Assembly (NCBI GenBank): GCA_963827475.1
Contig: CAWHAZ010000004.1
Coordinates: 128,001 to 192,000, forward strand
DNA from: an uncultured Chloroflexia bacterium
GTDB lineage: Bacteria; Chloroflexota; Limnocylindria; QHBO01
Direction: 5' to 3'
Length of the DNA: 64,000 nt
Below are positions 8,847-30,657 of this stretch, in pieces (position 1 is the first letter of the stretch; each line of letters starts with the position of its first letter). The notes under the pieces are model-generated. The model was not told the DNA's origin. It worked only from the letters and a program-made list of their open reading frames with translations, and made no database searches. Position numbers and translations under genes: made by a program.

Positions 8847-9763
8847 TGAGCCACCGCCCTGGCGACCTGCTCCTCCGGGCGGGCCTGGAGCTGGTGGACC
8901 TGTTCTTCCGTGCCCTGCCCCAGGGCGCGGCCTATGGTCTCGCCGACCTCCTGGGAGAGGCGTGGTATCGGTTCGCCCCGGCCCGTCGCCGGCTCGTGAC
9001 CGCCCAGCTGGCTCGGGTCGCGGAGGCGGGCGGCTACGCGGTGACCCGGGCGGGCCTGCGTCGCATGGTGCGGGCGGCGTTCGTGGCCCACGCCCGCTAC
9101 TACCTCGAGGTCATCCGGGTTCCCCGCCTCGATCACCGCCGGATCGACGAGGTCCTGACCTGGGACGACGAGGCGGGAGTGGAGGACCTCGCCCGGCAGC
9201 GTGGGATCATCGCCGTGTCCGCCCACTTCGGGAACTTCGAGCCCGCCGCGGTGTGGCTGGCCAGTCGCGGACTGCGCTGGGTCGCGCCCATGGAGCGCAT
9301 CGAGCCCCGCGCCCTGTTCGAGTACCTCCTCTCGCGGCGAGGCGGACGCAGCACCGGCGGCGAGCTGGTCGTGCCGCCGGATGCGGCACGCCGGATCCTC
9401 CGTGGCCTGCGCGAGGGGGTGGTGGTGGCGATCGCCACCGACCGGGACCTCGGCAGCCCAACCGTGACGGTGACGATGTTCGGCCATCCGGCGGCGGTCC
9501 CGTCAGGGCCGGCCACGCTCGCCCTCCTGACCGGTGCGCCAGTCGTCGTCGGGACCGTGCGGCGGACCGCGCCGGGCCGGTTCGCGGCCCACGTCGAGCG
9601 CGTCGAATGGACCGCCACCGACGACCGTGAGGCCGACGTGGCCGCTCTCTGTCAGCGGATCACCGACGTCCTGTGCCGGCACATCGCCGAGGCGCCGGAG
9701 CAGTGGTGGGGCGCGTTTCAGCCGGTGTGGGCCGACCTCGCACGCGCGTCCCGGCCGGGATGA
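8846..9763 (+). CDS. Lysophospholipid acyltransferase family, PatA/LpxL-like acyltransferase 2
   Basis: AHFGNFE, ATDRDL, FGHPAAVPSGPATLA, PEQWWGAFQPVW; TGATG coupling. Confidence 0.88.
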   Translation: MSHRPGDLLLRAGLELVDLFFRALPQGAAYGLADLLGEAWYRFAPARRRLVTAQLARVAEAGGYAVTRAGLRRMVRAAFVAHARYYLEVIRVPRLDHRRIDEVLTWDDEAGVEDLARQRGIIAVSAHFGNFEPAAVWLASRGLRWVAPMERIEPRALFEYLLSRRGGRSTGGELVVPPDAARRILRGLREGVVVAIATDRDLGSPTVTVTMFGHPAAVPSGPATLALLTGAPVVVGTVRRTAPGRFAAHVERVEWTATDDREADVAALCQRITDVLCRHIAEAPEQWWGAFQPVWADLARASRPG

Positions 9764-10527
9764 CCAACCGTCAACCGACTCGGACAGGTGGTCCGCGCAG
9801 CGGAGCGCGCGGGATGGCCGACCTGCACCTCCACACCCTCTACTCCGACGGCACCGCCCGCCTGGCCGACCTGATGGGCTGGATCGAGCAGCGCACCGAG
9901 CTGGACCTGGTGGCCATCACCGACCACGACCGGATCGATGGGGCGCTCCGCGCGGTGGCGATGCACGACGCAGGCGACTACCACTTCGAGCTGGTCGTCG
10001 GGGAGGAGATCACCACCCGGCGCGGTCACGTCGTCGGCCTGTTCCTCAGCGACCCGATCCCGCCCTTCCGGTCGGTGGCCGAGACGGTGGAGCGCATCCA
10101 CGACCAGGGCGGGCTGGCGGTGGCCGCCCACCCGTTGGGGGTGTTCCTCTCCCTGGGCAGCGGCAGCCTGCGCCGGCTCCAGGCCGATCCACGCCCGGAA
10201 CGCCACCTGGACGCGGTCGAGATCATCAACCCCAGCCTCGGCGGCCGCCTGCGGCATCGCGCGCTCGAGGCGCTGAACGCCGACGAGCTCCACCTGCCGG
10301 GCCTTGGCTCATCGGATGCCCACGTCCTCGAGACGGTGGCCAGTGCCTGGACCTGGTTCCCCGGCTCGACCGCGGCCGAGTTTCGCGCCGCGCTCGCCTC
10401 GGGGTCGGTGGAGGCGGCCGGGAGCCACTGGAGCACCGGTCACAACGTGGCGGTCTACGGCCGTCAGTTGGTGGCCAAGGCCCAAAAGCTGCGCCATACT
10501 CTCCGCCCGTCCGGAGAGTGGCGATAA
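9760..10527 (+). CDS. PHP-domain metal-dependent phosphoesterase
   Basis: DLHLHTLYSDG, AITDHD, GEE, AAHP, SSDAH metal-ligand motifs. Confidence 0.9.
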   Translation: MTNRQPTRTGGPRSGARGMADLHLHTLYSDGTARLADLMGWIEQRTELDLVAITDHDRIDGALRAVAMHDAGDYHFELVVGEEITTRRGHVVGLFLSDPIPPFRSVAETVERIHDQGGLAVAAHPLGVFLSLGSGSLRRLQADPRPERHLDAVEIINPSLGGRLRHRALEALNADELHLPGLGSSDAHVLETVASAWTWFPGSTAAEFRAALASGSVEAAGSHWSTGHNVAVYGRQLVAKAQKLRHTLRPSGEWR

Positions 10528-10530
10528 ACC

Positions 10531-11722
10531 GTGATTGACGCCCCAGGGGCCGCGCGCCTCGACGTCCCCCTGGCATCCACCGGCCCGTCCGCGGCGCGTC
10601 CGCCGCTGAAGATCGGGATCGTGAGCCCGTACGGCTTCCCCCATCCGGGTGGCGTGAACGAGCACGTGCGCCACACCTACGAGGAGCTCCGCTCACTGGG
10701 CCACGACGCGTGGATCATCACCCCCAAGTACGGCAACGAGCGCGACAGCGAGGGCCACGTCATCCGGATCGGGACCGGATGGGCGGTGCCCAGCAACGGC
10801 AGCGTGGGTCGGCTGACCGTCGGCTGGCGGCTCCGACCCCGGCTTCGGGACCTGCTCGCCGCGCATCGGTTCGACGTCCTCCACTTCCACGAGCCGTTCG
10901 TCCCGTTCCTGGGACCGGCGGTGCTCAACACCTCGGACACGGTCAATGTCGCCACGTTCCACGCGTTCGGGGGGTTCTCGCCGTCGTACTGGCTCGGTCG
11001 CCGGGCCGCGGCCGGGCTGGCGGAGCGGCTCCACGGGCGGATCGCGGTCAGCGGCGCCGCTCGACACTTCATCTCGCGCTACTTTCCCGCGGATTACCGG
11101 ATCATCCCCAACGGGGTCGAGATCGAGCCCTTCGCCAGCGCCCAGCCGTTCGACGAGCTGCGTGATGGCACCCTGAACATCCTGTTCGTCGGCCGCCTCG
11201 AGGACCGCAAGGGCCTGTCCTACCTGCTCCGCGGCTACCACCGCCTCCGAAAGCGGCATGTCGACGCCCGGCTCATCGTGGTCGGCGCCGGCCCGCCGCC
11301 TGCGCGAGTACCGCCGATACGTAGCCACCCGCCGGATCCGCGACGTCGAGTTCGTGGGTCACGTCCCGCTCGAGGCCAAGCTCCGCTACTTCGCCAGCGC
11401 TGACGTGTTCTGCGCCCCGTCCACCGGCCAGGAGAGCTTCGGCATCGTCCTGCTGGAGGCGATGGCCGCCGGCCTGCCGATCGTGGCTTCGGACATCCAC
11501 GGCTACAAGAACGTCGTCTCCCGCGACGTCGAGGGCTACCTCGTCGAACCAAAGAACCCGCGCGCCATCGCCGCGGCCCTCTACAAGCTGGCCGGCGACC
11601 CCGAGCTCCGCCACCGAATGGGCGAGGCCGGGCGAGCCAAAGCGGCCGACTACTCGTGGGAGCGGGTCACCGAGCAGGTCGTCGCCTATTACCACGAGGT
11701 CCGCGACCGGATCCTCGTCTGA
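10531..11722 (+). CDS. pimA: GT4 glycosyltransferase, phosphatidyl-myo-inositol mannosyltransferase PimA-like; apparent +1 frameshift near 11294
   Basis: KIGIVSPY..PGGVNEHV, PSNGSV, DVLHFHEP, ATFH, GRLEDRKG, GQESFGIVLLEAMAAG across ORFs 10531 and 11258. Confidence 0.85.
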
Positions 11723-15905: not shown

Positions 15906-16875
15906 ATGAGACCCGTATCGCGCGGGGCCGTCTTCTGGGGCACCGCGCTCGTCACCGCCGGTGTCGTCGTGCTCGCCATCCAGCAGGGCTGGATCAGCCA
16001 GGACATCCTCAGCCAGGCGGTTCAATGGTGGCCGCTGTTCCTCATCGGCGCCGGGGTCGCGATCATCTTCGCCGGAGCCCTGGGCGTGGTCGCGACCGCC
16101 CTGGCCGGAGTGCTGCTCGGCCTCCTCGTCGGCGGCTTCATCGGCGGCGGAGCGACGCTCCCCACCTCGTGCGGCACCGGGGAGCCGGCCGCGCTCGAGG
16201 CCTACGAGGACGGGACACTCGCAAGCGGGGCGGAGGTGGACATCGACCTGAACTGCGTGACCCTCGAGGTCTCGGCCGGGGACGGCCAGGTCTTTACCGT
16301 CAGCGCCGACGAGGAGACGGCGAGCCAGCTCGACGTCTCCGCCGATCCCGATCGACTCGAGGTCTCGTCCGATGACACGGTCATCATCGGTTCCGACCAT
16401 CGCCTCCACGTCGGCGTGGTCGTGCCGGGTGACGAGGGCACCAGCCTGTCCAGCAGCCTCAACGCCGGCGACGCGACGTTCGACCTGGCCGATGGGCGGT
16501 GGGGCGAGATCAGCCTGTCGGGCAACGCGGTCGCCATCCGCGTCGACCTGTCGGGTGCCGAGGCGGACGGGGTTTCCGGGTCGATGAACGCGGGAGCGAT
16601 GGAGGTCGTGCTCGACGCGGACAGCGCTCCGGGCTCGATCAGCCTGAGCGGGAACGCGGCCTCGTTCGAGGTCTGCGCGTCGGACGAGATCGGCCTCGCA
16701 GATCACCGTCGGCGAGAACGTGGCCACCGGCCACAACCTCGAGGAGGCCGGGCTGAGCGAGGATGGTGGCGTGTGGCAGACGGCCGGCTACGACTCCGCG
16801 GACACGCAGATCGAGATCACGTTCAGTGGCAATGCCGCGTCCTTCAACCTCAACCCTGACGGAGGCTGCTCGTGA
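15906..16875 (+). CDS. Membrane protein with LiaF/DUF5668-like N-terminal helices and beta-rich extracellular domain; apparent +1 frameshift near 16700
   Basis: FWG..LV, WWPLFLIGAG, then repetitive beta-strand pattern (LNAGDATFDL, GNAVAIRVDL); +1 frame continues to TGA 16875. Confidence 0.65.
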
Positions 16876-17384
16876 ACCGGCCGCTGTACCGGTCCGTCGC
16901 CGACCGGAAGATCGGCGGCGTGGCGGCGGGGACGGCCGCCTACTTCGACATCGACCCGTCCATTTCCCGCGTCCTGTGGCTGCTGCTGGCGATCTTCACC
17001 GGCGGGATTTTCGTGATCGTGTACATCGTGATGTGGGCCATCGTGCCCGAGGAGCCATGGCAGCCAGCAGTGGCTGCACCGGCGGAGGCGGCGAGTGCTC
17101 CGGCAGCCGACAGCGCGGGGGAAGTCGATGGAGCCGACGCTTCGGCGACAGGTGATGAGACGACGGTCGCGCCAGCGGCGGCCAGCTCGACGTGGTCGCC
17201 GTCAGTCGAGGTCTCGAGGGGGCCGGGGCCCCATGTCATCTTCGGGGCCATCCTGATCGTCATCGGCGGCTGGTTCCTCGCCCAGCAGTTCCTCCCCTGG
17301 CTCAACTTCGGGACCCTCTGGCCCATCGGTCTGGTCGTCATCGGCGCGATCATCCTGGTCAGTGCCCTCCGCCGCGGGGGCTGA
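16872..17384 (+). CDS. PspC-domain membrane protein
   Basis: LYRSVADRKIGGVAAG.A.YFDIDP...YIVMWAIVPEE; C-terminal LWP TM pair. Confidence 0.9.
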   Translation: MNRPLYRSVADRKIGGVAAGTAAYFDIDPSISRVLWLLLAIFTGGIFVIVYIVMWAIVPEEPWQPAVAAPAEAASAPAADSAGEVDGADASATGDETTVAPAAASSTWSPSVEVSRGPGPHVIFGAILIVIGGWFLAQQFLPWLNFGTLWPIGLVVIGAIILVSALRRGG

Positions 17385-20300
17385 CCCACCGAAGCGCTCG
17401 GGCCAGCGGCTCTGGAGCAGGTCGCGGCCGAACGACGCGAACGAGGCGGCTCCGAGCGACACGAAGGTGGCCAGCGCCAGGACGAGCGGGTTGGAGCTGA
17501 TGAGCGGCGGCCGCTCCCCCTGGGGCGGGTTCGGGAACTGGAATGCGTAGTTCCACGGCGGGAGGGTCCGCGCCGCGTTGATGTACCAGTCCGGCATCGC
17601 CAGCGCGGAGTTCAGCGGGTAGATGAGCAGCCCGGTGATCGCGACCGCGACCAGGAACGCGATGCCGTAGTCGCGCAGGTACCGGTCGCGCAGGATCTCG
17701 TCGAGCACGTAGGCGATGGCCACGAACCCGAACAGCACCGCGGTCAGGTAGTGGTACTGGAAGGTCGCCCGCTCGACGCGCGCCCACGGCACGAACTGGA
17801 AGGCGAAGGCCGCCGCGACCAGCAGCAGCGCCCACGAGCGGCGGCGCCAGGCGAGGAGCAGGCAGGCGAAGACGGCCGGGACGCTGGCCCAGAACAGGGC
17901 CGGGTTGCCGCCGTTGTACGTCACCGCGACCCGGTTCAGGTCGAAGGAGTGGCTGTAGAACCAGACCGGCTTGAGGTCGAGCGGCCAGCTCCACCACGGC
18001 GAGGACGCGACGTGGCCGGCCTGCAGCCCGAAGTGGTAGCCGAACATCTGGGCGTGGAGCTCGTCGAGCGACCACCCGTAACCCACCCCGCCGTTCGGGA
18101 TGGCGATCGTGTGACCGATGTTCAGCCACGGGATGTAGGTCGCCACGTACACCGCGAGCGGGATGACCACCAGGCACGCGAAGATCCACGGCCAGGCGAA
18201 GCCGCCCATCTCCGAGGGCATGTACCACCGGGAATCTGACGCGGGGCGTCGGAGGCTGCGGACCGCGCGCAGCACGAGCAGGACGGCGGTGATGACCAGG
18301 GCGATGACGGCCGGCCACCACGCCTCGATCCCCCGGAACAGGATGCCGAAACCCAGCTCGACGAGGTTCCGCGGCTCGCGACAGCCGCCCTCCCCGCAGT
18401 CGAGGGTCTGGAAGCCGATGGCAAAGGCCAGCCCGATGGCGCCGACCACCAGCAGCGTCGCCGGCACAGCCCACAGCTCCGCCGGCTCGAGGCGAACCGG
18501 CTTGACCCAGGCCACGGCCACGGCCAGGGCCAGGGCCGCGATCATGATCACGAAGAACGGCCATGGGGCCTCGAAGCCGATGGCGAAGGTCGCGAAGCCG
18601 GTCGCGGCCACGACCAGGAATCGGCCGAGCTGCGAGCGCAGGAGGACGAGGAACCACAGGCCGATGAGCGCGTACCAGCCGACCCACTTCGATCCTGCGG
18701 CGAGGCCGATCATCACCCCGACAAGGGGCAGGATGAACCACGCGCTGCGTCGCCAGCGGCCACCCCAGATCGGCCAGAACAGGGCGTAGCCGGCCACGAT
18801 GAACACCGCGACGAAGATGTCGTTCATCGCGATCCGGCTCATGGCGAAGCTCATCAGGTCGATGGCCACGAACACGCCGGCGAGGATCGCGATCGATCGG
18901 CGATGGAACAGCAGGGCCGTCAGCAGGTAGACGAGCCCGGCCAGTAGGGCCCCGAAGACGGTGGCTGCGAAACGCCAGGCGAAGGCGTTCTGGCTGACGT
19001 CGATCCGGACCAGCTCGGGTGGGTCGGCCTCGGTGGCGACGATGAGCCGCCCATGATCATCGGACTGGGAGTAGTCGCTGATGTCGAAGCCCATGACCGT
19101 GGGCACTCCGCTGATCACGACCTGGTCATAGACCCCGAAGCCGGACCGGCCGTCGCCGTGCGGCTCGATGACCCACACCGCGCCTTCGCCGGCGACGTGG
19201 ACCAGGTTCGCGACCGAGTCCCAGCCGAGGGCGGTGGCCGGGCCGGGGAGCGGAATGGTGTCGTCGGGGGTGATCTCGCCGCCACGGAGGACGGTGATCC
19301 CGCCGGTGGTCGCGGGGTGCTCGTCGGTTTCGGCCAGCGGCCCAACCGGTACCCAGGTCAGCTGGCTGGTTCCGCGTCCGCTGGTCATCATCGGGCCCAG
19401 CGGCGTGGACGGCAGGGACTCGCTGCTCTCGGTGGCCAGGGTCGTGGCGTCCAGGGTCTGGACCGTGGCCGCATCGACGTCGAGGACGAGGACTCGCGCG
19501 GTCACCGGCGTGTCGCCACCCACCGCCACGACGTAGGAGATGGCGTCCGCGACGATCTCGCGGCGGACGAGCTCGACGCCGGTGACGCGCTCGAAGACGG
19601 CCACCTCGTCCGGCCCGCGGACGACCAGCACCGGCTCGTTGAGCGGGGCGACGATCTCTTGGACCCCGTCCATGCCGGTCCCGATCCCCACCCCCTCGGG
19701 AGGCGGGGCCCGCGGACCTTCGCGGGTCAGGAAAGCGGTGAGGTCAAACGTGGCGATCGTGCCGTCCGCGCGGAGCCCCACCAGCAGGCGGCGGGTGTCG
19801 GCATCGAACACGAGGGTCGTCACCCGGTCCGCGGCCTCCCAGTCGGCCAGGAGCACACCGCTGGCCGCGTCACGGGCCTCGATCCGTTCGCTCCCGTCGG
19901 AGGTGAACACGATCGAGGTCGGCCAGCCAAGTGAGGTGCGTTGCGGAGCCACCGCGAGAGACGTAGCCGTCGCGTCCAGCTCAATCGTGCCGTCGGGTCG
20001 GTTGGGGTCAGCCACCGCGATCCCGGCCGCGATCAGGTACTTCGCGAGCATCGGGTGCGTCCACTCGTACGGGTCGCGGTTCCAGCCCCACTGCCAGTCG
20101 GACAGGTAGTCGGCGGCCGTCCGAGCGTGATAGACCTCGTCGAAGATCATCTGCCGCGGCAGGTCCAGCCGCCACAGGCGGACCACCAGCGCCAACAGCA
20201 CGATTCCGACCACCAGCCCGAGGTCCAGCCAGTCGAGCCGTCGCGGCGGCGCACGCTCCGCCTCGCTGATCGGGTCCTGCCGCAGCCAGCGCCACCCGGC

Positions 20301-21800
20301 CCGACCACGGGCGGCGCGCACGGCCCGTGAAGCCGCAGCGGCGGTCGCAGCCGCGGCCACGGCCTCCGGGTCCGGTTCCGCATCGCCGGCCGGGCGCGGC
20401 GCGGGCTTGAGCGCCTGCCAGCTGATCCACCCCAGGAGGAGGAGGGAGCTGAACGAGAGCAGCCACACCCCCCACTGGGTGAAGAACACGGCCGCCATCA
20501 GCGGGTCGCGGTCGAACGGCTCGCCGCCAGTCCCCGGGGCGATGGGCGGCAGCCCGGCGTACGACCAGTCGTGCGAGTAGACCCAGTACACGTTCAGGAA
20601 GAACAGCGCGGACAGGCCGACGTAGGCCACCGCCCAGCGAACCGCGGTCCCGACCATCGGGGCGGCGAGGGCCAGGGCGGGGAAGAGGTAGCGCTCGTGG
20701 ACGCGGGTCGGCAGGGCGAAGAAGGCGACCGCCATGGTCAGGGCGCCGAGCAGCAGGCCGGTCATGTCGTCCCGCCGCGCGACGGCGACCAGGGCCAGGA
20801 CCGCGGCCAGGCCGAACAGGAACACGCCAACCATGGCCGTGGTCACGCCGGCACCGTCGCCGCCGACCGTGAAAACGACGGTCTGGTCGCTCCCCCACTG
20901 CTGGACATCCCAGATGCCGGTGAACGGGTTCCGCCACCAGTTCAGGGCGTTGATCGACAGACCCTTGTACGTCTGGGTGGCGGCCAGGAACTTGTCGATG
21001 ATCCCGGTCGCCGGGTCGCCGGTGGGCAGGATCCGCATCCCGAACGGGAACAGGACGAGGACCATCGTCCCGAAGCTGGCCGCCGCCGAGCTGAGGATGC
21101 GGACCGGGTCCGGCCGGGACGCCAGGGCCGGGTCGGACGACCGGCCGAACAGGTGTCGCTTCAGGCCGACCACCAGCACGATGGGGATGAGCCAGCCGAA
21201 CTGGAACTTGATGAGCAGGGCGAGCACGGCGGCGACCCCGGCCGCCTCGGTCCAGCCGCGGCCGAGGGCGTAGAGCCCCGCCAGGAGCACGAACGCGCCG
21301 ACGGCGTCCATCTGTCCCCAGACCGCGGAGTTGAACACGGTCCCGGGGTTGAACAGGTAGACCGCTGCCCCGATCAGGCCGATCCGGGCCCCGGACCCCA
21401 GCCAGCGGACCGGCGGATGGTCGCCCAGGAACCGGGTGCCGATGAGGTAGATCAGCCACGCCACGCCGATGTCGGCGACCATCCCCGGCACCTTGACCAG
21501 GGGCCGGATGGGCGAGATGCCGGTGATCGGCTCGAAGAACTTCGCGATCTCGCCGAGGCCCCACAGGACGTACATGTAGGCCGGGGGGTAATCGGTGAAC
21601 ACCCCCGTCTCGTAGAATCCGGCCGGCCCGACCGCCGCCATGCGCACGGCCCAGGCGGAGAACGAGGCCATGTCGTTGCGGAAGCCCGACTGCGGGAGCA
21701 GGACGTAGGCCACGAACAGGCGCAGCGCAAAGCCGGCGACGAGGAGGATGAGGAGCGTGCCGAACGGATCGAGAAGTCGTCTGCGGCCGGCGCTCGACAA
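17202..21800 (-). CDS. 1532-aa fusion of two GT-C glycosyltransferases (N-terminal GT87/Gpi18-like; C-terminal protein O-mannosyltransferase-like with large extracellular insertion)
   Basis: DYPPAY, NSAVWGQMDA, PTRVHERYLFP; then FDEVYH, HPMLAK, SRIAMNDIF, SKWVG, SPWWSWPL, GNPALFW, TFQYHYL. Confidence 0.85.
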   Translation of the reverse strand: MSSAGRRRLLDPFGTLLILLVAGFALRLFVAYVLLPQSGFRNDMASFSAWAVRMAAVGPAGFYETGVFTDYPPAYMYVLWGLGEIAKFFEPITGISPIRPLVKVPGMVADIGVAWLIYLIGTRFLGDHPPVRWLGSGARIGLIGAAVYLFNPGTVFNSAVWGQMDAVGAFVLLAGLYALGRGWTEAAGVAAVLALLIKFQFGWLIPIVLVVGLKRHLFGRSSDPALASRPDPVRILSSAAASFGTMVLVLFPFGMRILPTGDPATGIIDKFLAATQTYKGLSINALNWWRNPFTGIWDVQQWGSDQTVVFTVGGDGAGVTTAMVGVFLFGLAAVLALVAVARRDDMTGLLLGALTMAVAFFALPTRVHERYLFPALALAAPMVGTAVRWAVAYVGLSALFFLNVYWVYSHDWSYAGLPPIAPGTGGEPFDRDPLMAAVFFTQWGVWLLSFSSLLLLGWISWQALKPAPRPAGDAEPDPEAVAAAATAAAASRAVRAARGRAGWRWLRQDPISEAERAPPRRLDWLDLGLVVGIVLLALVVRLWRLDLPRQMIFDEVYHARTAADYLSDWQWGWNRDPYEWTHPMLAKYLIAAGIAVADPNRPDGTIELDATATSLAVAPQRTSLGWPTSIVFTSDGSERIEARDAASGVLLADWEAADRVTTLVFDADTRRLLVGLRADGTIATFDLTAFLTREGPRAPPPEGVGIGTGMDGVQEIVAPLNEPVLVVRGPDEVAVFERVTGVELVRREIVADAISYVVAVGGDTPVTARVLVLDVDAATVQTLDATTLATESSESLPSTPLGPMMTSGRGTSQLTWVPVGPLAETDEHPATTGGITVLRGGEITPDDTIPLPGPATALGWDSVANLVHVAGEGAVWVIEPHGDGRSGFGVYDQVVISGVPTVMGFDISDYSQSDDHGRLIVATEADPPELVRIDVSQNAFAWRFAATVFGALLAGLVYLLTALLFHRRSIAILAGVFVAIDLMSFAMSRIAMNDIFVAVFIVAGYALFWPIWGGRWRRSAWFILPLVGVMIGLAAGSKWVGWYALIGLWFLVLLRSQLGRFLVVAATGFATFAIGFEAPWPFFVIMIAALALAVAVAWVKPVRLEPAELWAVPATLLVVGAIGLAFAIGFQTLDCGEGGCREPRNLVELGFGILFRGIEAWWPAVIALVITAVLLVLRAVRSLRRPASDSRWYMPSEMGGFAWPWIFACLVVIPLAVYVATYIPWLNIGHTIAIPNGGVGYGWSLDELHAQMFGYHFGLQAGHVASSPWWSWPLDLKPVWFYSHSFDLNRVAVTYNGGNPALFWASVPAVFACLLLAWRRRSWALLLVAAAFAFQFVPWARVERATFQYHYLTAVLFGFVAIAYVLDEILRDRYLRDYGIAFLVAVAITGLLIYPLNSALAMPDWYINAARTLPPWNYAFQFPNPPQGERPPLISSNPLVLALATFVSLGAASFASFGRDLLQSRWPERFGGSAPAAEGTDQDDRADDDQTDGPEGPEVEPGEELLGEEPAADDDQDGPEDDMGPRPPRDLD

Positions 21801-21827
21801 GGCGGCGGTGAGTATATCGTGGGGTCT

Positions 21828-22583
21828 GTGAACCGACCGACGGCCACCCGGCCGGCCCTCACCTTCTTCTTTCCCGCCTACAACGAAGAAGCGAACATCG
21901 AGCAGACGGTGGCCCGCGCCCTGGCGGACATCGGTCCGTTGGTCGAATCACTCGAGGTGCTGGCCATCGACGACGGCTCGACCGACCGGACGCCGGAGCT
22001 GGCCGACGCACTCGCCGCCGCCGAACCGCGGGTCCGGGTCGTGCACCAGCCCAACCGTGGCTATGGCGGCGCGTTGCAGGCCGGATTCGCGAACGCCGAC
22101 GGCGAGCTCATCTCCTTCTCCGACGGGGACCTCCAGTTCGACCTGGCAGAGCTCAAGCGCCTGCTCGACCGCCTGGCGGACCGATCGCGCCCGGTGGACG
22201 CGGTCATCGGCTACCGGATCAAGCGGCGCGACCCCTTCCATCGGCTGGTCATCGCCAAGACCTACAACGCGATCGTCTCGGTCCTGTTCGGGCTGCGGGT
22301 GCGCGACATCGACTGCGCGATGAAGGTGTTCCGACGCGAGGTGTTCGACGGGCTGCGGCTCGACGCGGAGGGCCCGTTCCTGTCGGCCGAGCTCCTGATC
22401 AAGCTGAACGCGCGGGGGGTGAAGATGGACCAGGTGGGGGTGACCCACTATCCGCGGCTGGCGGGCGAGAACACCGGCGCCAGCTTCCGCAAGATCCTCC
22501 GGACCTTCCGCGACATCTTCAAGCTGCGCTGGAAGCTGTGGACCGACCGGGAGCGCACGTTGGGGACACAGCCCCGGGGCTGA
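21828..22583 (+). CDS. GT2 polyprenyl-phosphate glycosyltransferase (Ppm1/DPM1-like)
   Basis: FFPAYNEE, IDDGSTD, NRGYGGAL, DGDLQFD, DIDCAMK; GTG start 21828. Confidence 0.88.
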   Translation: MNRPTATRPALTFFFPAYNEEANIEQTVARALADIGPLVESLEVLAIDDGSTDRTPELADALAAAEPRVRVVHQPNRGYGGALQAGFANADGELISFSDGDLQFDLAELKRLLDRLADRSRPVDAVIGYRIKRRDPFHRLVIAKTYNAIVSVLFGLRVRDIDCAMKVFRREVFDGLRLDAEGPFLSAELLIKLNARGVKMDQVGVTHYPRLAGENTGASFRKILRTFRDIFKLRWKLWTDRERTLGTQPRG

Positions 22584-23130: not shown

Positions 23131-25347
23131 CTACTCGAGGACGACGCGGACGACCCGATCCGGTGTCAGCAGGTAGGCCGCTGGTGGCCCGTCGGCGACG
23201 GAGATGACCTCGAGGCCGAGCACCTCGTCGAGCAGGCCGGCGGCATCTCCCCGCCGTGGGGCCATCCACTGCCGGATGAAGGCACCGTCCGCGCGCTGGA
23301 AGGCGACGATCCGGGCGTTGGCCGCGTCGTAGACGAAGAACAGCTCGCGGTCGATCACCGTTGCCGCGTCGAACAGGGTGTAGTCGAGCCCGTCGCGGAC
23401 CGCGGCGTCGGGCGGGCGGTCCAGCGAGAAGTCCGCCTGCGGCACCGGCGTGCCGAAGTTCACCCGGGTGACGGTCGCGCGATGGAGGAGCCACAGGTTG
23501 GCGTCGGCGCGGAGGTCACGCGCGGCGGCCGGGTCGAGGTCCGGCTCGGCGGTGAGGAACGACTCGGGAGCGTCGGGGAAGACGACCGGGATGACCGGCG
23601 GCGGCGTCCACTTCCAGACCTCCCCGCCTCCCCCGTCGACGGCATACAGGTTGAAGATCTCGAGCGGCGGGAGGTGCTGGAGGGCGGTGAGGAGCGTGCT
23701 TGCGGGATCGAGGGCCTCGATGCTTGCCAGCGGCATCCGGCGCATGACCTGCTCCACCAGGTCGGACCGCCAGGCCTGGCGCTCGCGGTCGACCACCACC
23801 ACGTCGGTGGCCGCGGTGGCGATGAGCCACGGGTCGCCGGCCACCGCGCCGTCGATGGTCTGCCCGGCGCGATAAACCGATACGGCCGCGCCACTCAGCG
23901 GATCGATCCGGAGGATTCGCCCGCGGCCGGTTTCGAGCACCCACAGCGACCCGTCCGAAGCGGCCACCATCCGCTGCGGATCGACGCCGGTGAACGCGGC
24001 CGCCAGGTCGGCGACGGTTGCCAGCTCACGGATGCGCGACACGGAGTACAGCGCGTCGAGGCCGCCATCGAGGCGGATCCGCAGCGGCTCGAGGGCCTCG
24101 GCCGTCACGCCGGCGCCCTCCGCTCGGTCCAGGGCGCCTCCGGCATCGGTGAGCAGGTCGCGAGCCCGCTCGGGATCCCGCTCCACGAGGTCGAGGCCGT
24201 CCACCCGGGCCTCCACCTCCGCCAGGAGGGCCCCGCCCTCCGCGATCGCCTCGCGGGCGATGGCGAGCCGGGGGATGGCCTGGGTGGGATCCGCCGATGG
24301 GTAGTTCGCGACCGTCACCCCAGCCGCGAGGAGGCCGGCCACGGCCAGCATGCCCAGCGCGCCGAGCCGGCGGCGACGGCGAGCCTCGACCGCCTCGGTG
24401 GGGACCACGCGGCGGGGGTAGTCCACCCGGCGGTGAGGCATGAGGGCCGCCAACTGCCCGATCCAAAGCTCGACCGAGCTGCCGACCCGCGACTGGGCGT
24501 GGTCCACCGCCCGATCCGCCCGCCGCAGGGCGCCGCCGACCGCGTCGGCGCCGGGGACCGGGCTGCGGTCGGGCAGGCCGGCGAGGGGGTCGGCAGGGCG
24601 CACCGGCTCCAGCCGATGGGTGGTGGCGGTCAGCGGGATGGCAGTCAGCTCGAGAACGAGCAGGCCGTCGGAGCCCGTCCCGCCCCGCTCGAGGAACAGC
24701 TGGTGCAGGTGCCGCGCGGCCGGCCCGGGTCGCAGTCGGAGGAGCGTCTGGCGCGTGTCCTCCGCCCCGACTGTCTCGGCCAGGTTGCGGCTGACGAGCG
24801 CGACTCGATCCCCATCCGTCAGCTCGCCCGACCACGTTACCGGCTCGATCTCGAGCGCCTCCCCCAGCGACTCGGCCAGTCGCCGGCCGGTCTCGGGCTC
24901 GTCGTCGGCCAGGTGCGGCGGCGGCAGCTCGAAGATCCGCTCGCCGCGGACGATGATCGCCCCCGCCGGGCCGATCCTGGCCACGTGCAGCTCGGCGGCG
25001 CGGATCGCGGCTCCGACCACGCTGATTTCGGCCCCGCGCCCCAGGCCCGCGCGGCCCCGGCCGTGGAACAGGCGACGGTTGGCCTGGGCGAGTGCCCGCG
25101 CAAGGGTGTCCGCCGGGCCGGCGGAGAGGTCGTAGTAGTAGTCGTGCTCGATGGTCTCCAGCGCCTGGCGGGCGGCCCGGACGGTGTTCGGTCCCGCGTT
25201 CGTCAGCTGGGCGAGGAGGTACAGGCTGCCCTTCGTCCGGACCGGGGCGCCGACCGTGGGCTCGTTCAGCCGGACCAGGTCCCGCGCTTCGGTCCCCCGC
25301 TCGGCCTCCGGGACGAGACCGATCTTGGTCGCCAGCCGCTGGCTCAT
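23131..25347 (-). CDS. Single-pass membrane protein: degenerate PP2C-like cytoplasmic domain plus extracellular beta-propeller-like domain
   Basis: PP2C-like strands (ALAQANRRL, LHVARIG, SLG, GDRVALVS) without acidic metal ligands; RRRR + TM; repeated beta blades (LWVLETGRGRILRID, FFVYDAANARIVAF). Confidence 0.65.
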   Translation of the reverse strand: MSQRLATKIGLVPEAERGTEARDLVRLNEPTVGAPVRTKGSLYLLAQLTNAGPNTVRAARQALETIEHDYYYDLSAGPADTLARALAQANRRLFHGRGRAGLGRGAEISVVGAAIRAAELHVARIGPAGAIIVRGERIFELPPPHLADDEPETGRRLAESLGEALEIEPVTWSGELTDGDRVALVSRNLAETVGAEDTRQTLLRLRPGPAARHLHQLFLERGGTGSDGLLVLELTAIPLTATTHRLEPVRPADPLAGLPDRSPVPGADAVGGALRRADRAVDHAQSRVGSSVELWIGQLAALMPHRRVDYPRRVVPTEAVEARRRRRLGALGMLAVAGLLAAGVTVANYPSADPTQAIPRLAIAREAIAEGGALLAEVEARVDGLDLVERDPERARDLLTDAGGALDRAEGAGVTAEALEPLRIRLDGGLDALYSVSRIRELATVADLAAAFTGVDPQRMVAASDGSLWVLETGRGRILRIDPLSGAAVSVYRAGQTIDGAVAGDPWLIATAATDVVVVDRERQAWRSDLVEQVMRRMPLASIEALDPASTLLTALQHLPPLEIFNLYAVDGGGGEVWKWTPPPVIPVVFPDAPESFLTAEPDLDPAAARDLRADANLWLLHRATVTRVNFGTPVPQADFSLDRPPDAAVRDGLDYTLFDAATVIDRELFFVYDAANARIVAFQRADGAFIRQWMAPRRGDAAGLLDEVLGLEVISVADGPPAAYLLTPDRVVRVVLE

Positions 25348-25354: not shown

Positions 25355-25711
25355 TCACTCGGGGGCGGCAGCGCCGGGACGGACGGTCAGGGTCAGGCTC
25401 CGGAGCTCATACAGCGCCCCGGGCCGGCCGCGCTGGCGTTCGTTCACCGCGCGGACCAGCTGGTCGCCGCGCAGCTTCAGCTCGGCGGCGAGGATCGGTT
25501 CGGAGGCCACCACGGTGGCCACCCCGTTGTTCACCGCGGTCAGCCGGCTCCACATACCCTCCGGCGCCAACCCCGCGTCTCCGACCGTCTCCTGCCACGC
25601 CAGGCGCGCCTGGGCCAGGGCCAGCTGCTCCGCGGCTCCGGGGCCCACGCACTGGAGGAGGGCGCGCTGGACCGCGCTGGCGGCTTCCTCGGTGGTCGTG
25701 CGCGTGCCCAT
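25355..25711 (-). CDS. DciA/DUF721 family protein
   Basis: AWQETVG...GVATVVASEPILAAELKL pattern; canonical position after recF. Confidence 0.7.
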   Translation of the reverse strand: MGTRTTTEEAASAVQRALLQCVGPGAAEQLALAQARLAWQETVGDAGLAPEGMWSRLTAVNNGVATVVASEPILAAELKLRGDQLVRAVNERQRGRPGALYELRSLTLTVRPGAAAPE

Positions 25712-25723
25712 CGTGGCCCAGGC

Positions 25724-26909
25724 TCAGGCGACGCGGGAGGCGAGGGCCAGCCGTCCGTCCCCAACGGTCCAGACCGGCACGCGGTGGCGGTGGCGCGCGG
25801 GCAGCAGGCTCGTGTCGGTGATGGTGACCAGGACCTGGCCCCGCTGCCGGAGGAGGTCCAACCCCCGCTCCGAGCGCTCCGGATCCAGCTCGCTGAACAC
25901 GTCGTCGAGGAGGACGATCGGCGCCGGACCGCCACCCTCGGCCAGCAGGTCGGTCTCGGCCAGCTTCAGGGCGATGATGATCGTGCGCTGCTGGCCGCGG
26001 CTGGCGTGGGCGGCGACCGGGAGGCCGCCGAGGGTGATCCCGATGTCGTCGCGCTGCGGGCCGACCAGCGACACCCCGTTCCAGATCTCCTTTTGGCGCA
26101 CGTCCTCCAGCCGGCGTCGGATGGCCGCGGCCAGTCGATCCGGGTCGAGACGGGCCGCGTCGCCGGCGGGCGCCTCGCGCTCCGGCCAGGCGTCCTTCAG
26201 GACGTCGAGGTAGACCAGGCCCACCCGATCGTCCCGCTCGTCGGCGGGGGCGACCGCGTCATGCAGCGGACCGATCAGCCCGGCCAGCTCGTCGACGAGC
26301 GCCAGCCTGGCGGCGGTGACCCGCGCTCCGACCTGGGCCAGCTGCTCGTCCCACACCCCCAGGCTGCCGATGTCGGCCTCCTCGGCACGGATGGCCCGCA
26401 GCAGGGCGTTGCGCTGGGCGAGGACGCGGGCCAGGTCGGCCTGGTCGCGGGCCGCCGCTCGCGACCGCTGGGCGGAGATGGCATCCAGGAAACGCCGCCG
26501 CTCCGACGGCGCGCCGACCAGGAGCAGCATCTCCTCCGGACGGAACAGCACCGCGCGCAGGGTGTCGGCGACCGATGCCTGGCGGCGGGCCACGCCGTTC
26601 ACGGTCAGCCGCCGACGCACGCGCGGGCGGCGCCTCGGCACCGGGCAGGACGAGCTCGATCCGCTGCGGCGCCTCGCTCCCCTCCGCCACGTCCAGCGTG
26701 ACCCGCGCCAGCGGCGCGCCGTGGGAGACGAGGTCCGCGTCACTCCCGGTCCGGTGGGAACGGCCGGAGACGGTGACCCAGATCGACTCCAGCAGGTTGG
26801 TCTTGCCGGCCCCGTTGGGCCCGGCGATGAGGGTCAGCCCGGGGTCCGGCGCGAGCTCGGCGGTGGCGTAGCTCCGAAAGTGGTCGAGCTGGAGTCGGGC
26901 GAGACGCAC
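25724..26909 (-). CDS. recF: DNA replication/repair protein RecF; apparent +1 frameshift near 26625
   Basis: GPNGAGKTNLLES, PSERRRFLD, QRNALL, GPQRDD, ASRGQQR, LLDDVFSELD. Confidence 0.93.
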
Positions 26910-26916
26910 GCCAACA

Positions 26917-28053
26917 TCAGGACGCAGTGCGCACCGGCATGATCACGTGGACGTACTCGTCCTTGCCCACGCCCCGGATGACCCCGGGCGCCAGCGGGCC
27001 GGACAGCTCGAGCACTGCCTCGTCGGCCCCGAGTGCGCCGAGGACATCGGTCAGGTAGCGGGCGTTGAAGGCGATCGTGGTGGGCGACCCCTCCACCGTG
27101 GCGTCCAGCGAGTCGGCGTTGTCGCCGATGTCGACCGCGTGCGCGCTGATCGTCACCCCGGCTGGCTCGCCGTCGGCCCCGCCGACCTCGACCTTGATGA
27201 TGTTCGCCGAGTCGCGGGCGAAGAAGCTCGCCCGCCGGGTGCCCGCCAGGAAGGCCTCGCGGTCCAGGGTGGCGCGGGCCGTCCACGAGTCCTTGGCCGG
27301 GACCACCGGCTCGTAGTTCGGAAACTGGCCCTCGATCAGGCGGCTGACGAGGTCGATGCCCTCCACGTGGAACAGGACCTGGCTGCGATTGGGCGTGATG
27401 GTGATCTCGACCGGCGCCTCGGCGTCGGGCAGGATCCGGACCAGCTCGGCATACGAGCGACCCGGGACCACGATCGTGGTCTCCGCCGCCACCGGCTTGG
27501 CGAGAGTCAGGGTCCGGACCGCGATCCGGTAGTTGTCGGCCGCGGCCAGGGTCATCGTGTCCCCCTCGAGCCGGGTCAGGACCCCGGTCAGGATCGGCCG
27601 CGACTCGTCGGTGGCCGCGGCGAAGACGACCTCTCCGAGTGCTTCGCGCAGGACCCGTGCGTCGACCGAGGTGATCGGCGCCTCGCCGATGGCCCCCACC
27701 ACCGGGAACTCGTCCGCCTCGATGCCCTTGATCGTGGCCCGGCTGCCGCCGCAGGTGACCTTCAGGCTCCGGTCCTTGGGCGACAGCTCGAGCTCGATGG
27801 TCTGGGGTGGGAGTGAGCCGACCAGGTCGGTCAGCAGGCGGGCGGGGACGGTGATCTCGCCACCGGCCTCCACCTTGCCGGGGACCCAGCAGGTGATGCC
27901 GATCTCGAGATTGGTGGCGGTGAGCTTGAGCCCGCCATCCTCGGTCCGAAGGAGGACGTTGGCCAGGACGGGAAGGGTGGCTCGGCTGGCGACCGCCCGG
28001 CTCACGATTCCCAGCCCGCGGGCCAGGTTCTCCTGCATGACGGAGATGTTCAT
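26917..28053 (-). CDS. dnaN: DNA polymerase III beta clamp
   Basis: LPVLANVLL, ATNLE, RPILTGV, SRLIEGQFPNY, IAFNARYL, IMPVR. Confidence 0.97.
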   Translation of the reverse strand: MNISVMQENLARGLGIVSRAVASRATLPVLANVLLRTEDGGLKLTATNLEIGITCWVPGKVEAGGEITVPARLLTDLVGSLPPQTIELELSPKDRSLKVTCGGSRATIKGIEADEFPVVGAIGEAPITSVDARVLREALGEVVFAAATDESRPILTGVLTRLEGDTMTLAAADNYRIAVRTLTLAKPVAAETTIVVPGRSYAELVRILPDAEAPVEITITPNRSQVLFHVEGIDLVSRLIEGQFPNYEPVVPAKDSWTARATLDREAFLAGTRRASFFARDSANIIKVEVGGADGEPAGVTISAHAVDIGDNADSLDATVEGSPTTIAFNARYLTDVLGALGADEAVLELSGPLAPGVIRGVGKDEYVHVIMPVRTAS

Positions 28054-28084
28054 GGACTTCTCAACTACGGTTCCTTGAAGCATA

Positions 28085-28320
28085 GAGATTTCTATCCGTC
28101 GTCTTTCGTCATAGGGGTGTGGAAGGTGTGGACATCAGCCAGAACCGTGCCCGGAACACCGTCTCGGGCCAGTGGGCCGGCTGGGGATGGGCCGTGCGCG
28201 AGCGCGGCCGGACGGTCGAACGGGCGGGGACGAGACCGATGGAAGGGCGTACCCGAGCCTCGTTCAGCCCCGGTCTTGTCCCCCGTCGGTGACCGCCTTG
28301 CGGCCGGTTGTCCACCGTCG
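28085..28320. other. Replication origin oriC (dnaA-dnaN intergenic)
   Basis: Minus strand ATGTCCACA-CCTTCCACA tandem DnaA-box-like sites (28118-28135), CCCC spacer, then TAT GAC GAA..GAC GAC trio-like repeats; TTGTCCACC near 28308. Confidence 0.7.
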
Positions 28321-29661
28321 TCACTCCGAGTAGATCATCTCCCGCACCGCGCTGATCTCGCGCCGCAGCTCGTCGTTGTCCTGCATCTCGCGGTTGATCT
28401 TGTCGCAGGCATGGAGCACGGTGGAGTGGTCGCGCCCGCCGAGCTCGGCGCCGATCCGGAGCAATGAGATATCGGTCTCCTCGCGGATGAGGTACATCGC
28501 GATCTGGCGCGGCACGACGATCGCCTTTTCCCGCTTGCTGCTCCGCAGCTGGTCCAGGTTGACCCCGTAGTAGTCGGCCACCACCCGGACGATCCGCTGC
28601 GGCGTGATCGAGCGCTTGCGCGGGTTGTACATGACGTTTGAGAGGACCGCCGACGCCAGCTCGATGTTGATCGGCGCGCCGCTCATGGAGGCGTAGGCCA
28701 GGACCCGGTTCAGCGCCCCCTCCAGCTCACGGACGTTGCTCACCACCTTGCGAGCGATGAAGTCGATGACCTCCGATGGGATGAGGTGGAGCTGCTCCTC
28801 GGCCTTGGAGCGGAGGATCGCGATCCGGGTCTCGAGGTCCGGCGGGGTCAGGTCGGCGATGAGCCCCATCTCGAACCGCGAGCGAAGCCGCTCCTCGAGG
28901 GTGGTGATCGCCTTCGGTGGGCGGTCCGAGGACAGGACGATCTGCTTGCCGACCTCGTGGATCGCGTTGAACGTATGGAAGAACTCCTCCTGGGTCCGCT
29001 CCCGCTCGGCGATGAACTGGATGTCGTCGATGAGCAGGACGTCGATACGCCGGTATCGGCTCCGGAAGTCCTCCATCTTCTGCTCGCGGATGGAGTTGAT
29101 GAAGTCGTTGGTGAACTTCTCGCTGGTGGCGTACAGGATCCGCTTGCGCGGGAACTTGGCGGCCACCGCATGACCGATGGCGTGCATGAGGTGGGTCTTG
29201 CCCAGCCCCACCCCGCCGTACAGGAACAACGGGTTGTAGGCGTGGCCCGGCCGCTCGGCGACCGACAGGGCGGCGGCATGGGCCAGTCGGTTCGCGCTGC
29301 CGACGATGAAGTTCGAGAACGTGTAGCGGGCGTTGAGGTTGACCGCGTTTCCGCTGGGCGTGGAGGCCGGGACCGGCGTCAGCTCGTCGCTTGACTGCTC
29401 GGGGGCGGGCCCTGGCGCGTCCGCGACCACGAACTCGACGCGGACCGAGCGGCCCACGACCCGGGCCAGGGTCTGGCTGACCAGGGTCCGGTAGCGGTTG
29501 TCGAGCCAGTCACGGGTGAACCCGTTGGGAGCCGAGATGCGGAACAGGTGCTCGTCGATCTCCTCGAGGGAGGTGTCCTTCAGCCACGTCTCGAAGTTGG
29601 CGGCCGAAAGGCTCACCTGCAGCTCGCCGAGGACGGCGCGCCACACCTGCTTCGCATCCAT
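28321..29661 (-). CDS. dnaA: Chromosomal replication initiator DnaA
   Basis: YNPLFLYGGVGLGKTHL, LLIDDIQF, QEEFFHTFN, NVRELEGAL, GGRDHSTVLHA; ATG 29661. Confidence 0.98.
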   Translation of the reverse strand: MDAKQVWRAVLGELQVSLSAANFETWLKDTSLEEIDEHLFRISAPNGFTRDWLDNRYRTLVSQTLARVVGRSVRVEFVVADAPGPAPEQSSDELTPVPASTPSGNAVNLNARYTFSNFIVGSANRLAHAAALSVAERPGHAYNPLFLYGGVGLGKTHLMHAIGHAVAAKFPRKRILYATSEKFTNDFINSIREQKMEDFRSRYRRIDVLLIDDIQFIAERERTQEEFFHTFNAIHEVGKQIVLSSDRPPKAITTLEERLRSRFEMGLIADLTPPDLETRIAILRSKAEEQLHLIPSEVIDFIARKVVSNVRELEGALNRVLAYASMSGAPINIELASAVLSNVMYNPRKRSITPQRIVRVVADYYGVNLDQLRSSKREKAIVVPRQIAMYLIREETDISLLRIGAELGGRDHSTVLHACDKINREMQDNDELRREISAVREMIYSE

Positions 29662-29955
29662 TTCGACAGACGCCTCCAGGCCGGCCAAGCGAGTGCCAGG
29701 ACCGGGCGAAATCCAAGATTCTGGTGCTCCTCCGGGGCGGGCACGGCCCGTGGGCTGGGCGTCTGGCTCCGGGGGTCGGCGTAGTCTACGCCACCCCGAT
29801 GGGCAGGGCAACGATTCTTGGCCGCGTGGGTTAGAATCGCCGCCACGCGACGCCCAACCGCCAACGTTGCACCGAAGAGGCTGGCGAAGAGCCAGCCTCA
29901 CGCATGTTCCGCGGACCGGCGCCGCTCTGGCTGAACAGAGGGTGAGCCCACGACG

Positions 29956-30090
29956 ATGAAACGGACCTATCAGCCCAAGAAGCGCGCCCGGAAGCGGAAT
30001 CACGGCTTTCGCGCCCGCATGGCTTCCAAGGGCGGTCGTCGCGTGCTGGCCCGCCGCCGGGCGAAGGGGCGCAGCCGGCTGAGCGCCTGA
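29956..30090 (+). CDS. rpmH: 50S ribosomal protein L34
   Basis: [22 protein letters not shown]...[12 protein letters not shown] read directly (below ORF-track cutoff). Confidence 0.97.
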
Positions 30091-30107
30091 TCCCGGAGGC
30101 CACGCCC

Positions 30108-30446
30108 ATGCCGGCCTTCCCGACGCTTCGTCGCCGGGCCGACTTCGAGGCGGTGGTGCGCTCCGGGAGCGTCAGCGCCACTCGGCTGCTCGTCCTGCGG
30201 GCCCGACGAACGGAAGGGCCGACGACCCGTATCGGCCTGGCAACACCGGCCTCCCTGGGAGGGGCCGTCGAACGGAATCGAGTACGACGCCGCATGCGTG
30301 AGCTGGTCCGGGCGCGCCACGGCGAGATGGGAGCGGGCTGGGACCTGCTGGTGATCATGAAACCTGCGGCTGCCGCCGCGACGTTTGCCGAGCTGGGCGC
30401 CGCCCTGGACGCGGCGCTGGCCCGTGCCGGGGTCTCCGGGGAGTGA
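30108..30446 (+). CDS. rnpA: Ribonuclease P protein component
   Basis: [28 protein letters not shown] motif. Confidence 0.93.
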
Positions 30447-30450
30447 CCGC

Positions 30451-30657
30451 GTGCGGATGATCGGCCTCGGGCTGATCCGGGCGTACCAGGTGCTCACCTT
30501 CTGGATGCCGCCCACCTGCCGCTACACCCCTTCGTGCTCGGCCTACACCTACCAGGCGATCGAGCGCTACGGCTTCTTCCGGGGCTCGTGGATGGGCGCC
30601 AAGCGGATCGCTCGCTGCCATCCCCTCCACCCCGGCGGCTACGACCCGGTTCGCTAG
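30451..30657 (+). CDS. yidD: Membrane protein insertion efficiency factor YidD
   Basis: [10 protein letters not shown]...[16 protein letters not shown]. Confidence 0.95.

Follow-up and report, generated by a model that had tools for sequence, protein, structure and literature searches.

The window analysed here, a stretch of 64,000 nucleotides (nt; about 70% GC) from an uncultured Chloroflexia bacterium of the class Limnocylindria (assembly GCA_963827475.1, contig CAWHAZ010000004.1, positions 128,001 to 192,000), raises the question of what is made by a single open reading frame (ORF) of 1532 amino acids (aa) that appears to join two membrane glycosyltransferases of the GT-C fold in one chain. 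We found that this giant protein combines a divergent GT87-like GT-C module with a GT39 protein O-mannosyltransferase (PMT) module, and that the latter carries a modelled beta-propeller in its first outer loop. This architecture is a GT39 PMT with accessory modules, an undescribed form of a known enzyme kind and not a new category. Together with a glycosyltransferase of family GT2 encoded next to it, the giant could act as a single-chain machine for O-glycosylation outside the cytoplasm. Residue numbers below refer to the 1532-aa ORF and coordinates to the window.

The giant ORF (P0001) lies at 17202..21800 on the reverse strand. It is uninterrupted, as the sequence-only reading had reported, and starts with TTG. 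Its GC content at third codon positions (GC3) is 0.92, a value typical of coding sequence in 70% GC DNA and in keeping with a real coding sequence. From the N terminus, all on the reverse strand, it consists of a GT-C module (aa 1-465; 20406..21800), a linker (aa 466-520; 20241..20405), a first part of the PMT module (aa 521-596; 20013..20240), a propeller insert of 340 aa (aa 597-936; 18993..20012), a second part of the PMT module (aa 937-1460; 17421..18992) and an acidic C-terminal tail (aa 1461-1532; 17202..17420). The linker is rich in Arg, Ala and Pro, is variable and gapped in the alignment, and is probably cytoplasmic, judging from its arginines and the positive-inside rule. All these parts are kept in an alignment of 22 full-length relatives, and the architecture is conserved far beyond chance in these sequences.

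We then asked how firmly the C-terminal two thirds can be assigned to the PMTs. Both GT39-specific Pfam models passed their cut-offs there, PMT (PF02366) in two stretches with 67.1 bits (cut-off 22.7) and PMT_4TMC (PF16192) with 59.8 bits (cut-off 32.4). The FDEVYH motif, which had suggested a PMT-like domain in the first place, corresponds to aa 553-558. Its residues D554 and E555 (codons at 20136..20141, reverse strand) lie in the first outer loop after the first transmembrane helix (TM1) of the module and are invariant in 22/22 sequences. A single-sequence phmmer search with aa 521-1532 against the Protein Data Bank (PDB) gave no match at E<=0.01, and the full-length family profile (A1) was thus needed to reach Pmt4 of C. 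thermophilum, at E 2.8e-5; it also aligned to yeast Pmt2 and Pmt1. The alignment with Pmt4, Pmt2 and Pmt1 takes in the DE motif, which is aligned to FDEV of Pmt4, and the HPPLGK-like helix (HPMLAK in the giant). Part 1 of the module, with TM1, the DE motif and this helix of outer loop 1, is aligned with Pmt4 residues 60-112. Part 2 runs from TM2 to the last TM helix, includes PMT_4TMC, and is covered by the Pfam matches and by the alignments with Pmt4, Pmt1 and Pmt2. The defining activity of a PMT is transfer of mannose from polyprenyl-phosphate-mannose to Ser/Thr of proteins, which makes it a candidate activity of the giant. To our knowledge, every characterised GT39 enzyme is a protein O-mannosyltransferase.

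The same genome encodes a compact GT39 protein, P0273 (480 aa; G000:C2:9193-10635, L082:2193-3635), that has the DE motif and lacks both the insert and the N-terminal module. The NCBIfam equivalog model of actinobacterial Pmt (NF058602, cut-off 800 bits) was reached by neither protein, the giant scoring 14.2 bits and P0273 116.3 bits. P0273 served to place the insert. In the giant, aa 525-598 are matched by residues 7-80 of P0273 and aa 940-1060 by residues 82-218, indicating that the 340 additional residues stand in place of a linker of about 4 residues (about P0273 80-84) in outer loop 1. An insertion of this size in the first PMT loop had been proposed at about 18990-20010, in good agreement with the borders found here.

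The propeller-like strand repeats suggested for this insertion were borne out by structure prediction and fold search. AlphaFold2 modelled the insert from a 41-sequence alignment with a predicted local distance difference test (pLDDT) score of 93.8, a predicted template-modelling score (pTM) of 0.92 and 27 strands. Foldseek matched the model to seven-bladed WD40-type propellers (TLE1, RACK1, YncE and Ytm1; TMq 0.65-0.71, probability 1.0, 10-16% identity), and at least 500 PDB matches were obtained at E<=0.001, led by 7-bladed WD40 proteins. The model thus identifies the insert as a WD40-type beta-propeller, seven blades being the count in its best matches. No WD40 family was found at E<=0.1 in the Pfam scan of the giant. 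A profile search against 1.84 billion representatives returned 36 matches at E<=1e-30, and the complete insert was found in it only within this PMT family. One member, P0128 (967 aa, Met start), has the PMT module and the insert without the N-terminal module. Weaker matches were repeated hits through one blade-sized stretch (profile positions ~35-92) and are probably generic WD40-like repeat proteins. The insert begins about 40 residues past the DE motif. In PMTs the loop with the DE motif lies on the non-cytoplasmic side, and the propeller is therefore predicted to be extracytoplasmic.

The N-terminal module had been called GT87/Gpi18-like. Its GT-C fold and its kinship with free-standing GT87-like proteins stood, but Pfam GT87 (PF09594) scored only 16.8 bits on the whole giant, under the gathering score of 25. 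The module alone reached Pfam PIG-U with 25.8 bits (cut-off 24.5). Among 43 N modules, PIG-U was matched by 39, Alg6_Alg8 by 18 and GT87 by one, the last at E<=0.1, and the module was absent from the GT87 matches of its own genome at E<=0.01. AlphaFold2 modelled it with a pLDDT of 85.8, and hydropathy together with the model suggests 12 TM helices. Foldseek ranked PimE first (E 6.6e-6), followed by ALG6, PIG-U and GPI mannosyltransferase I (GPI-MT-I), and VIA-align gave Z scores of 24.9 for ALG6 (394 residues), 23.2 for ALG3, 22.2 for GPI-MT-I, 20.5 for PIG-U and 17.9 for PimE. Free-standing relatives of about 400 aa share 29-38% identity with the module (E 1.8e-52 to 1e-17); PF09594 is found in many of them, and some bear the name 'glycosyltransferase 87 family protein'. 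Language-model features likewise point from the module to clusters in which GT87 is carried by 15-41% of the members. Taken together, the sequences and models identify it as a divergent GT87-like GT-C module that falls outside Pfam GT87.

Seven stretches of the window's own genome match Pfam GT87 (L074-L080; contigs C3, C4, C5 and C6), six scoring above its cut-off, a large number for a genome of 1.9 Mb. Contig 4 has four of these stretches within 15 kb (G000:C4:236642-251273), about 45 kb past the window. The genome also encodes a free-standing N-module paralog (G000:C5:706934-708201, L081:3150-4247) that runs out of frame after about 230 aa, its second half lying in another frame with a TGA; this paralog is possibly a pseudogene or an assembly error.

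Does the N module keep residues of an active enzyme? D43 (codon at 21672..21674, reverse strand), which the AlphaFold2 secondary structure puts directly behind TM1, where the first outer-loop helix begins, is invariant in 43 N modules and is the candidate catalytic base. In a set of 45 sequences that includes free-standing GT87-like proteins, the invariant residues are D43, W50, Y63, P73, D110, P152, W161-G162-Q163, K198, N287, R366 and H368-E369-R370-Y371. For PimE, published work places D58, its catalytic base, at the tip of juxtamembrane helix 1 (JM1); Y62, Q163 and K195 are needed as well, and H322 contributes to holding the phosphate. Mutation of D58, Q163 or K195 abolishes activity and mutation of H322 reduces it (PMC12041525). 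The N module likewise has an Asp after TM1, an aromatic residue four positions on, Gln 163, Lys 198 and a His-bearing loop, and D43, K198 and H368 occur in the order and the loops expected from PimE, a match by pattern, without superposition. We infer from this pattern that D43 is equivalent to PimE D58.

Sequence searches did not provide this link directly. Against solved structures, neither profile A3 nor the single sequence of the N module had a match at E<=10. A widened profile (A4) reached GPI-MT-I (E 2.3e-7) and ALG6 (E 1.5e-3), and PimE was reached by none of the three, so that these searches gave no alignment of D43 to D58. Bridging through GT87 genes of the same genome was also attempted: the L074 ORF had no PDB match, the L076 ORF matched only GPI-MT-I, and hhalign of A3 against the L076 ORF gave a probability of 1.3%. 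Residues that do not vary among its free-standing relatives, D43, Q163, K198 and H368 among them, are kept in the N module. Transfer of a second sugar by this module is a plausible, and in our view probable, activity predicted from these kept residues. A complex prediction between the N module (aa 1-470) and the PMT core (aa 937-1460), made from the 22-row alignment, gave 0.00 in two runs without controls and says nothing either way.

The fusion could have been an artefact of genes that are separate elsewhere, as the sequence-only reading had itself allowed. This was not what we found. Among the 120 best database relatives (48-86% identity), 115 are 1390-1647 aa long, and 3 of the 5 shorter ones are labelled partial. 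Species-representative genomes contained 642 stretches encoding a relative, from which 73 loci were retained. Nearly all of these are titled Candidatus Limnocylindria or Chloroflexota metagenome-assembled genomes; three bear the titles Pleomorphomonadaceae, Methylomirabilota and Zixiibacteriota and one is an 'uncultured bacterium', the big ORF having 50-71% identity in all four. Three of these four loci (L009, L015 and L031) had enough flank to show the neighbourhood, and they share it.

We next surveyed 301 Chloroflexota genomes, namely the window's own (an assembly of 1.92 Mb, 90% complete), 15 of its family (f1), 17 others of its class (15 in f2, 2 in f3) and 268 from elsewhere in the phylum. 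The giant was present in 15/15 family genomes and in 17/17 other class genomes (f2 15/15, f3 2/2), that is in 32/32 Candidatus Limnocylindria. A single open frame spans both halves in 14/15 family genomes and in 15/17 other class genomes; G034 has the giant split over two adjacent frames, and G169 and G178 were not clear-cut. None of the 268 other Chloroflexota genomes had both halves together, and in the 31 of them with matches at E<=1e-10 every such match covered one half only, its frame being 282-902 aa long. Outside the family, the proteins of class members measure 1440-2165 aa and have the same Pfam order. The fusion persists in the class down to 34% identity and is retained in genomes of 1.1-1.2 Mb (G133 and G269). 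An assembly or annotation artefact is thus ruled out by the lengths of the relatives, the 642 stretches and the class-wide survey. One genome of the same family, G058, holds a second, diverged copy of the whole fusion (G058:C4:876072-880175; 1565-aa frame, 31-38% identity).

Database names of the relatives are only 'phospholipid carrier-dependent glycosyltransferase' or 'Gpi18-like mannosyltransferase / PMT'. As for whether the architecture had already been characterised, we found no description of it in the literature on Limnocylindria glycosyltransferases, on PMT with propeller and GT-C, on GT39 in Chloroflexi, on GT87/GT39 fusions or on Rv0051/Rv3212, a survey that did not extend to the supplements of the preprint cited next, which may list more fusions. 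Only that preprint bears on the architecture, through the mycobacterial system discussed below and through a one-sentence mention of a GT87-GT39 translational fusion in Paenibacillus (UniProt V9WAU2) (10.64898/2026.07.15.738315).

A candidate source of the donor sugar is encoded 27 bp away (21801-21827) on the other strand, as had been noticed from the sequence. The GT2 gene (21828..22583, forward strand) is divergent from the giant and encodes a 251-aa protein with no TM segment (PF00535, E 2.2e-30). Its closest relatives among solved structures were ArnC (E 4e-18, residues 12-230), the dolichol-phosphate-mannose (Dol-P-Man) synthase (DPMS) of P. furiosus (E 3.3e-14, residues 12-240) and GtrB (E 1.4e-9). 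These three enzymes load a sugar onto polyprenyl phosphate, and by sequence the GT2 is a polyprenyl-phosphate sugar synthase of this kind. As to the more specific label Ppm1/DPM1-like, which would mean GDP-mannose as substrate, the best NCBIfam matches (haloarchaeal Dol-P-hexose transferase, 1.1e-20; ArnC, 9.4e-20) were all far under the equivalog cut-offs, so that mannose is one candidate sugar among others.

The pairing with the giant was examined in the related loci with 6 kb of flank. The GT2 was divergently upstream of the giant in all 46 loci with enough upstream DNA. It directly adjoined the giant in 19 of them (28-420 bp). In the other 27, a gene for a TMEM260-like GT-C protein stood between the two, co-directional with the GT2 (for example L013:4258-5880, reverse strand; PF11028, E 1.2e-28). 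We found no TMEM260-like match in the window's own genome, in its 90% complete assembly. Human TMEM260 has been reported as a protein O-mannosyltransferase, in the part of the source available to us (PMC10214176).

The wider neighbourhood is a syntenic block next to dnaA/dnaN, with the order recF-dciA-ORF738-BFN nuclease-GT2-giant-pspC-liaF-ABC. In the window, dciA, recF, dnaN and dnaA lie on the reverse strand and yidC and jag follow on the forward strand (25355-32768), a replication-origin region; this location may explain the rigid gene order. ORF738 (23131-25347, reverse strand), between the BFN nuclease gene and dciA, encodes a 738-aa protein with one central hydrophobic segment and 47-82% identity in related loci. 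It has no Pfam or NCBIfam match.

On the other side of the giant, pspC (16872..17384, forward strand; PspC domain PF04024, E 2.3e-21) is convergent with it and overlaps its 3' end by 183 nt, the acidic tail being antisense to the LiaI-LiaF-like TM region of PspC. The convergent arrangement recurs in 42/50 loci; in 30 of these 42 the genes overlap by 93-183 nt and in 12 they do not (+4 to -350 nt). Some relatives stop earlier, yet their DNA aligns past the stop, and the apparent conservation of the tail may thus come from the pspC strand. Similarly, '1 TAG' flags inside the matches of G046 and G106 are read as the alignment running beyond a natural stop into the pspC-overlapping tail, since L007 and L009 stop 90 nt earlier.

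Genes resembling those for phosphatidylinositol (PI) and PI mannosides (PIM) were also confirmed in the window, at 5781-11722. One 684-aa frame (5781-7835, forward strand) fuses a CDP-alcohol phosphatidyltransferase (PI-phosphate synthase, E 1.1e-35) with an inositol-3-phosphate synthase (Ino1, E 4.5e-166). Two PIM acyltransferase homologs (7836-9763), a PHP hydrolase and a GT4 glycosyltransferase follow. The GT4, in the pimA position of the PI-lipid cluster, is split over two overlapping frames (10528-11403 and 11177-11722, forward strand), one frame encoding the N-terminal domain plus the beginning of the C-terminal one and the other frame the remainder, which is a frameshift or an assembly error. 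The set is actinobacteria-like, in a Chloroflexota genome.

How could these parts work together? A mycobacterial system offers the closest guide. According to the available part of a July 2026 preprint, Pmt-FLAG of M. smegmatis pulls down homologs of the GT87-like Rv0051, of the periplasmic eight-bladed propeller Rv3212 and of the DivIVA-like Rv1209; an AlphaFold3 model places the propeller directly above the DE site, where it is proposed to gate substrates in the way of the MIR domains in eukaryotic PMTs (10.64898/2026.07.15.738315). In the giant, three of the four parts of this complex are in one chain, and the propeller lies about 40 residues from the DE motif, which suggests by analogy an O-glycosylation holoenzyme made of a single chain, active outside the cytoplasm and supplied by the GT2 next door. 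This is the reading we prefer, and we regard it as evenly poised between right and wrong. On the inner face of the membrane, the soluble GT2 would attach mannose or a different hexose to polyprenyl phosphate. After flipping of the lipid-linked sugar to the outer face, the PMT module would pass the sugar to Ser/Thr of exported proteins. The propeller would cap the PMT active site and select or hold the acceptor, the role proposed for the MIR domains and for the separate mycobacterial subunit. The N module would pack on the PMT module as an intramolecular partner, as Pmt2 does, and would probably add a second sugar from the same donor pool. Several points weigh against this reading. Function, sugar and acceptor are predicted for all members from sequence and models alone, and the correspondence of insert and N module with the mycobacterial subunits is drawn from architecture. 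Since P0273 is far closer than the giant to the actinobacterial Pmt model, the giant may not be the general Pmt and may serve a special set of acceptors. The solved folds nearest to the N module (ALG6, ALG3, GPI-MT-I and PimE) all use lipid-linked acceptors, the giant has PI/PIM-like genes 6 kb away, and the conservation of the whole gene block near oriC makes the GT2 synteny weak evidence of coupling.

The preferred reading and its first rival differ in the second sugar. That one polypeptide carries both GT-C modules throughout the lineage, each with invariant acidic and basic residues, agrees with the initiate-and-elongate machine that the sequence-only reading had proposed, but elongation is one of two live readings. 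In the other, the holoenzyme is the same, but its N module has no catalysis of its own and serves as a scaffold or recruits the acceptor, as has been proposed for ML2687c/Rv0051 and for yeast Pmt2, with one sugar added. The available text of the preprint indeed calls the GT87-like partner (ML2687c/Rv0051) Pmt2-like and devoid of catalytic residues, and nonetheless important for the Pmt phenotype (10.64898/2026.07.15.738315); moreover, the best Pfam score of the N module, which fails the GT87 cut-off, is to PIG-U, a non-catalytic subunit of GT-C fold. A scaffold would not be expected from the invariance of D43, D110, W161-G162-Q163, K198 and R366/H368-E369-R370-Y371 in all 45 sequences, free-standing GT87-like proteins included, nor from the fit of their order and predicted location, by pattern and without superposition, to the residues on which PimE activity depends. 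We therefore consider the scaffold unlikely, although with a substantial chance. Slightly less doubtful in our view, and still tentative, is an extension of the two-step idea: both GT-C sites are live, the propeller-capped GT39 site starting the O-glycan and the fused GT87-like site extending it from the same polyprenyl-phosphate sugar pool, the assembly being ancient and shared by Terrabacteria and the dead mycobacterial partner derived.

The other two readings leave the holoenzyme altogether. The giant might build a glycolipid or lipoglycan, for example PI-mannoside-like lipids extended towards a lipomannan-like polymer, with the propeller binding the growing glycan or a lipoprotein chaperone. 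The lipid-linked acceptors and the PI/PIM-like genes just mentioned would suit this, as would the at least six true GT87 matches elsewhere in the genome and the propeller or lipoprotein partners that, in the available text of the preprint, accompany many mycobacterial envelope-pathway GT-Cs (10.64898/2026.07.15.738315). It is improbable, given that the C-terminal module scores above the cut-offs of the two Pfam models specific to GT39 and retains the DE motif of a family whose characterised members known to us all glycosylate proteins, and that GNAT, ABC and PspC/LiaF genes stand between the PI/PIM genes and the giant. More improbable still is that two independent GT-C enzymes were fused merely for co-expression, the GT2 adjacency reflecting conserved order near oriC and not a shared pathway. 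The synteny of the entire recF-to-ABC block and the complex prediction without a verdict are compatible with such a fusion. However, it would not account for a fusion kept class-wide down to 34% identity and in 1.1-Mb genomes, for the second diverged whole-fusion copy in G058, or for the independent evidence from Actinobacteria of a GT39/GT87-like/propeller assembly, as far as the preprint text at hand describes it (10.64898/2026.07.15.738315).

The holoenzyme reading matters beyond this locus. So far, a compact Pmt acting alone has been considered responsible for protein O-mannosylation in bacteria, and the preprint, in its available part, argues that a GT87-like partner and a periplasmic propeller are needed (10.64898/2026.07.15.738315). 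The fusion, fixed class-wide in a phylum other than that of the mycobacteria, provides 'Rosetta stone' evidence, obtained independently, for the three parts working as a unit. Moreover, one gene carries all three and could be expressed and solved as a single particle. Whether the partner is catalytic (two-step) or structural becomes directly testable, since the GT87-like module of the fusion has retained its conserved polar residues. The giant also points to O-glycosylated envelope proteins in the uncultured Limnocylindria, a class of soil and freshwater, the gene being kept even in 1.1-Mb genomes.

Compared with known systems, the giant shares its GT39 Pfam domains and DE motif with a compact bacterial Pmt such as P0273 (480 aa), which has neither N module nor insert. 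The N module is alike in fold to PimE (GT87; PDB 9DM5) and ALG6 (PDB 6SNH/6SNI), with the shared pattern of an Asp after TM1, a Gln at about 163, a Lys at about 198 and a His loop, whereas N modules alone have no significant sequence match to either, ALG6 being reached at E 0.0015 by the wider profile A4 only. Paenibacillus V9WAU2, known here from its description only, has a GT87 and a GT39 module fused as in the giant; a propeller is not mentioned in that single sentence. The eukaryotic PMT1-PMT2 and Pmt4 enzymes (GT39; PDB 6P25, 9I5K) can be aligned with the giant at the DE motif, at the HPPLGK-like helix and over the C-terminal 4-TM region, and both kinds have a lumenal or extracytoplasmic cap domain and a pairing of two GT-C units. 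In the eukaryotic enzymes, loop 5 carries the cap, a MIR beta-trefoil, and a second GT39 serves as partner, while in the giant a propeller in loop 1 forms the cap and a GT87-like GT-C is the partner in cis. By analogy, and as far as the available preprint text describes it, the mycobacterial Pmt complex (Pmt Rv1002c with Rv0051, Rv3212 and Rv1209) has most in common with the giant: a GT39 with the DE motif, a GT87-like second GT-C, an extracytoplasmic propeller at the GT39 active site and a polyprenyl-phosphate sugar donor. Its propeller is reported as eight-bladed, whereas that of the giant best matches seven-bladed ones, and its GT87-like partner is called inactive, whereas the GT87-like part of the giant keeps family-invariant polar residues. 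What the mycobacterial complex distributes over separate proteins, the giant would thus hold, for three of the four parts, in one chain, with the propeller inserted in outer loop 1.

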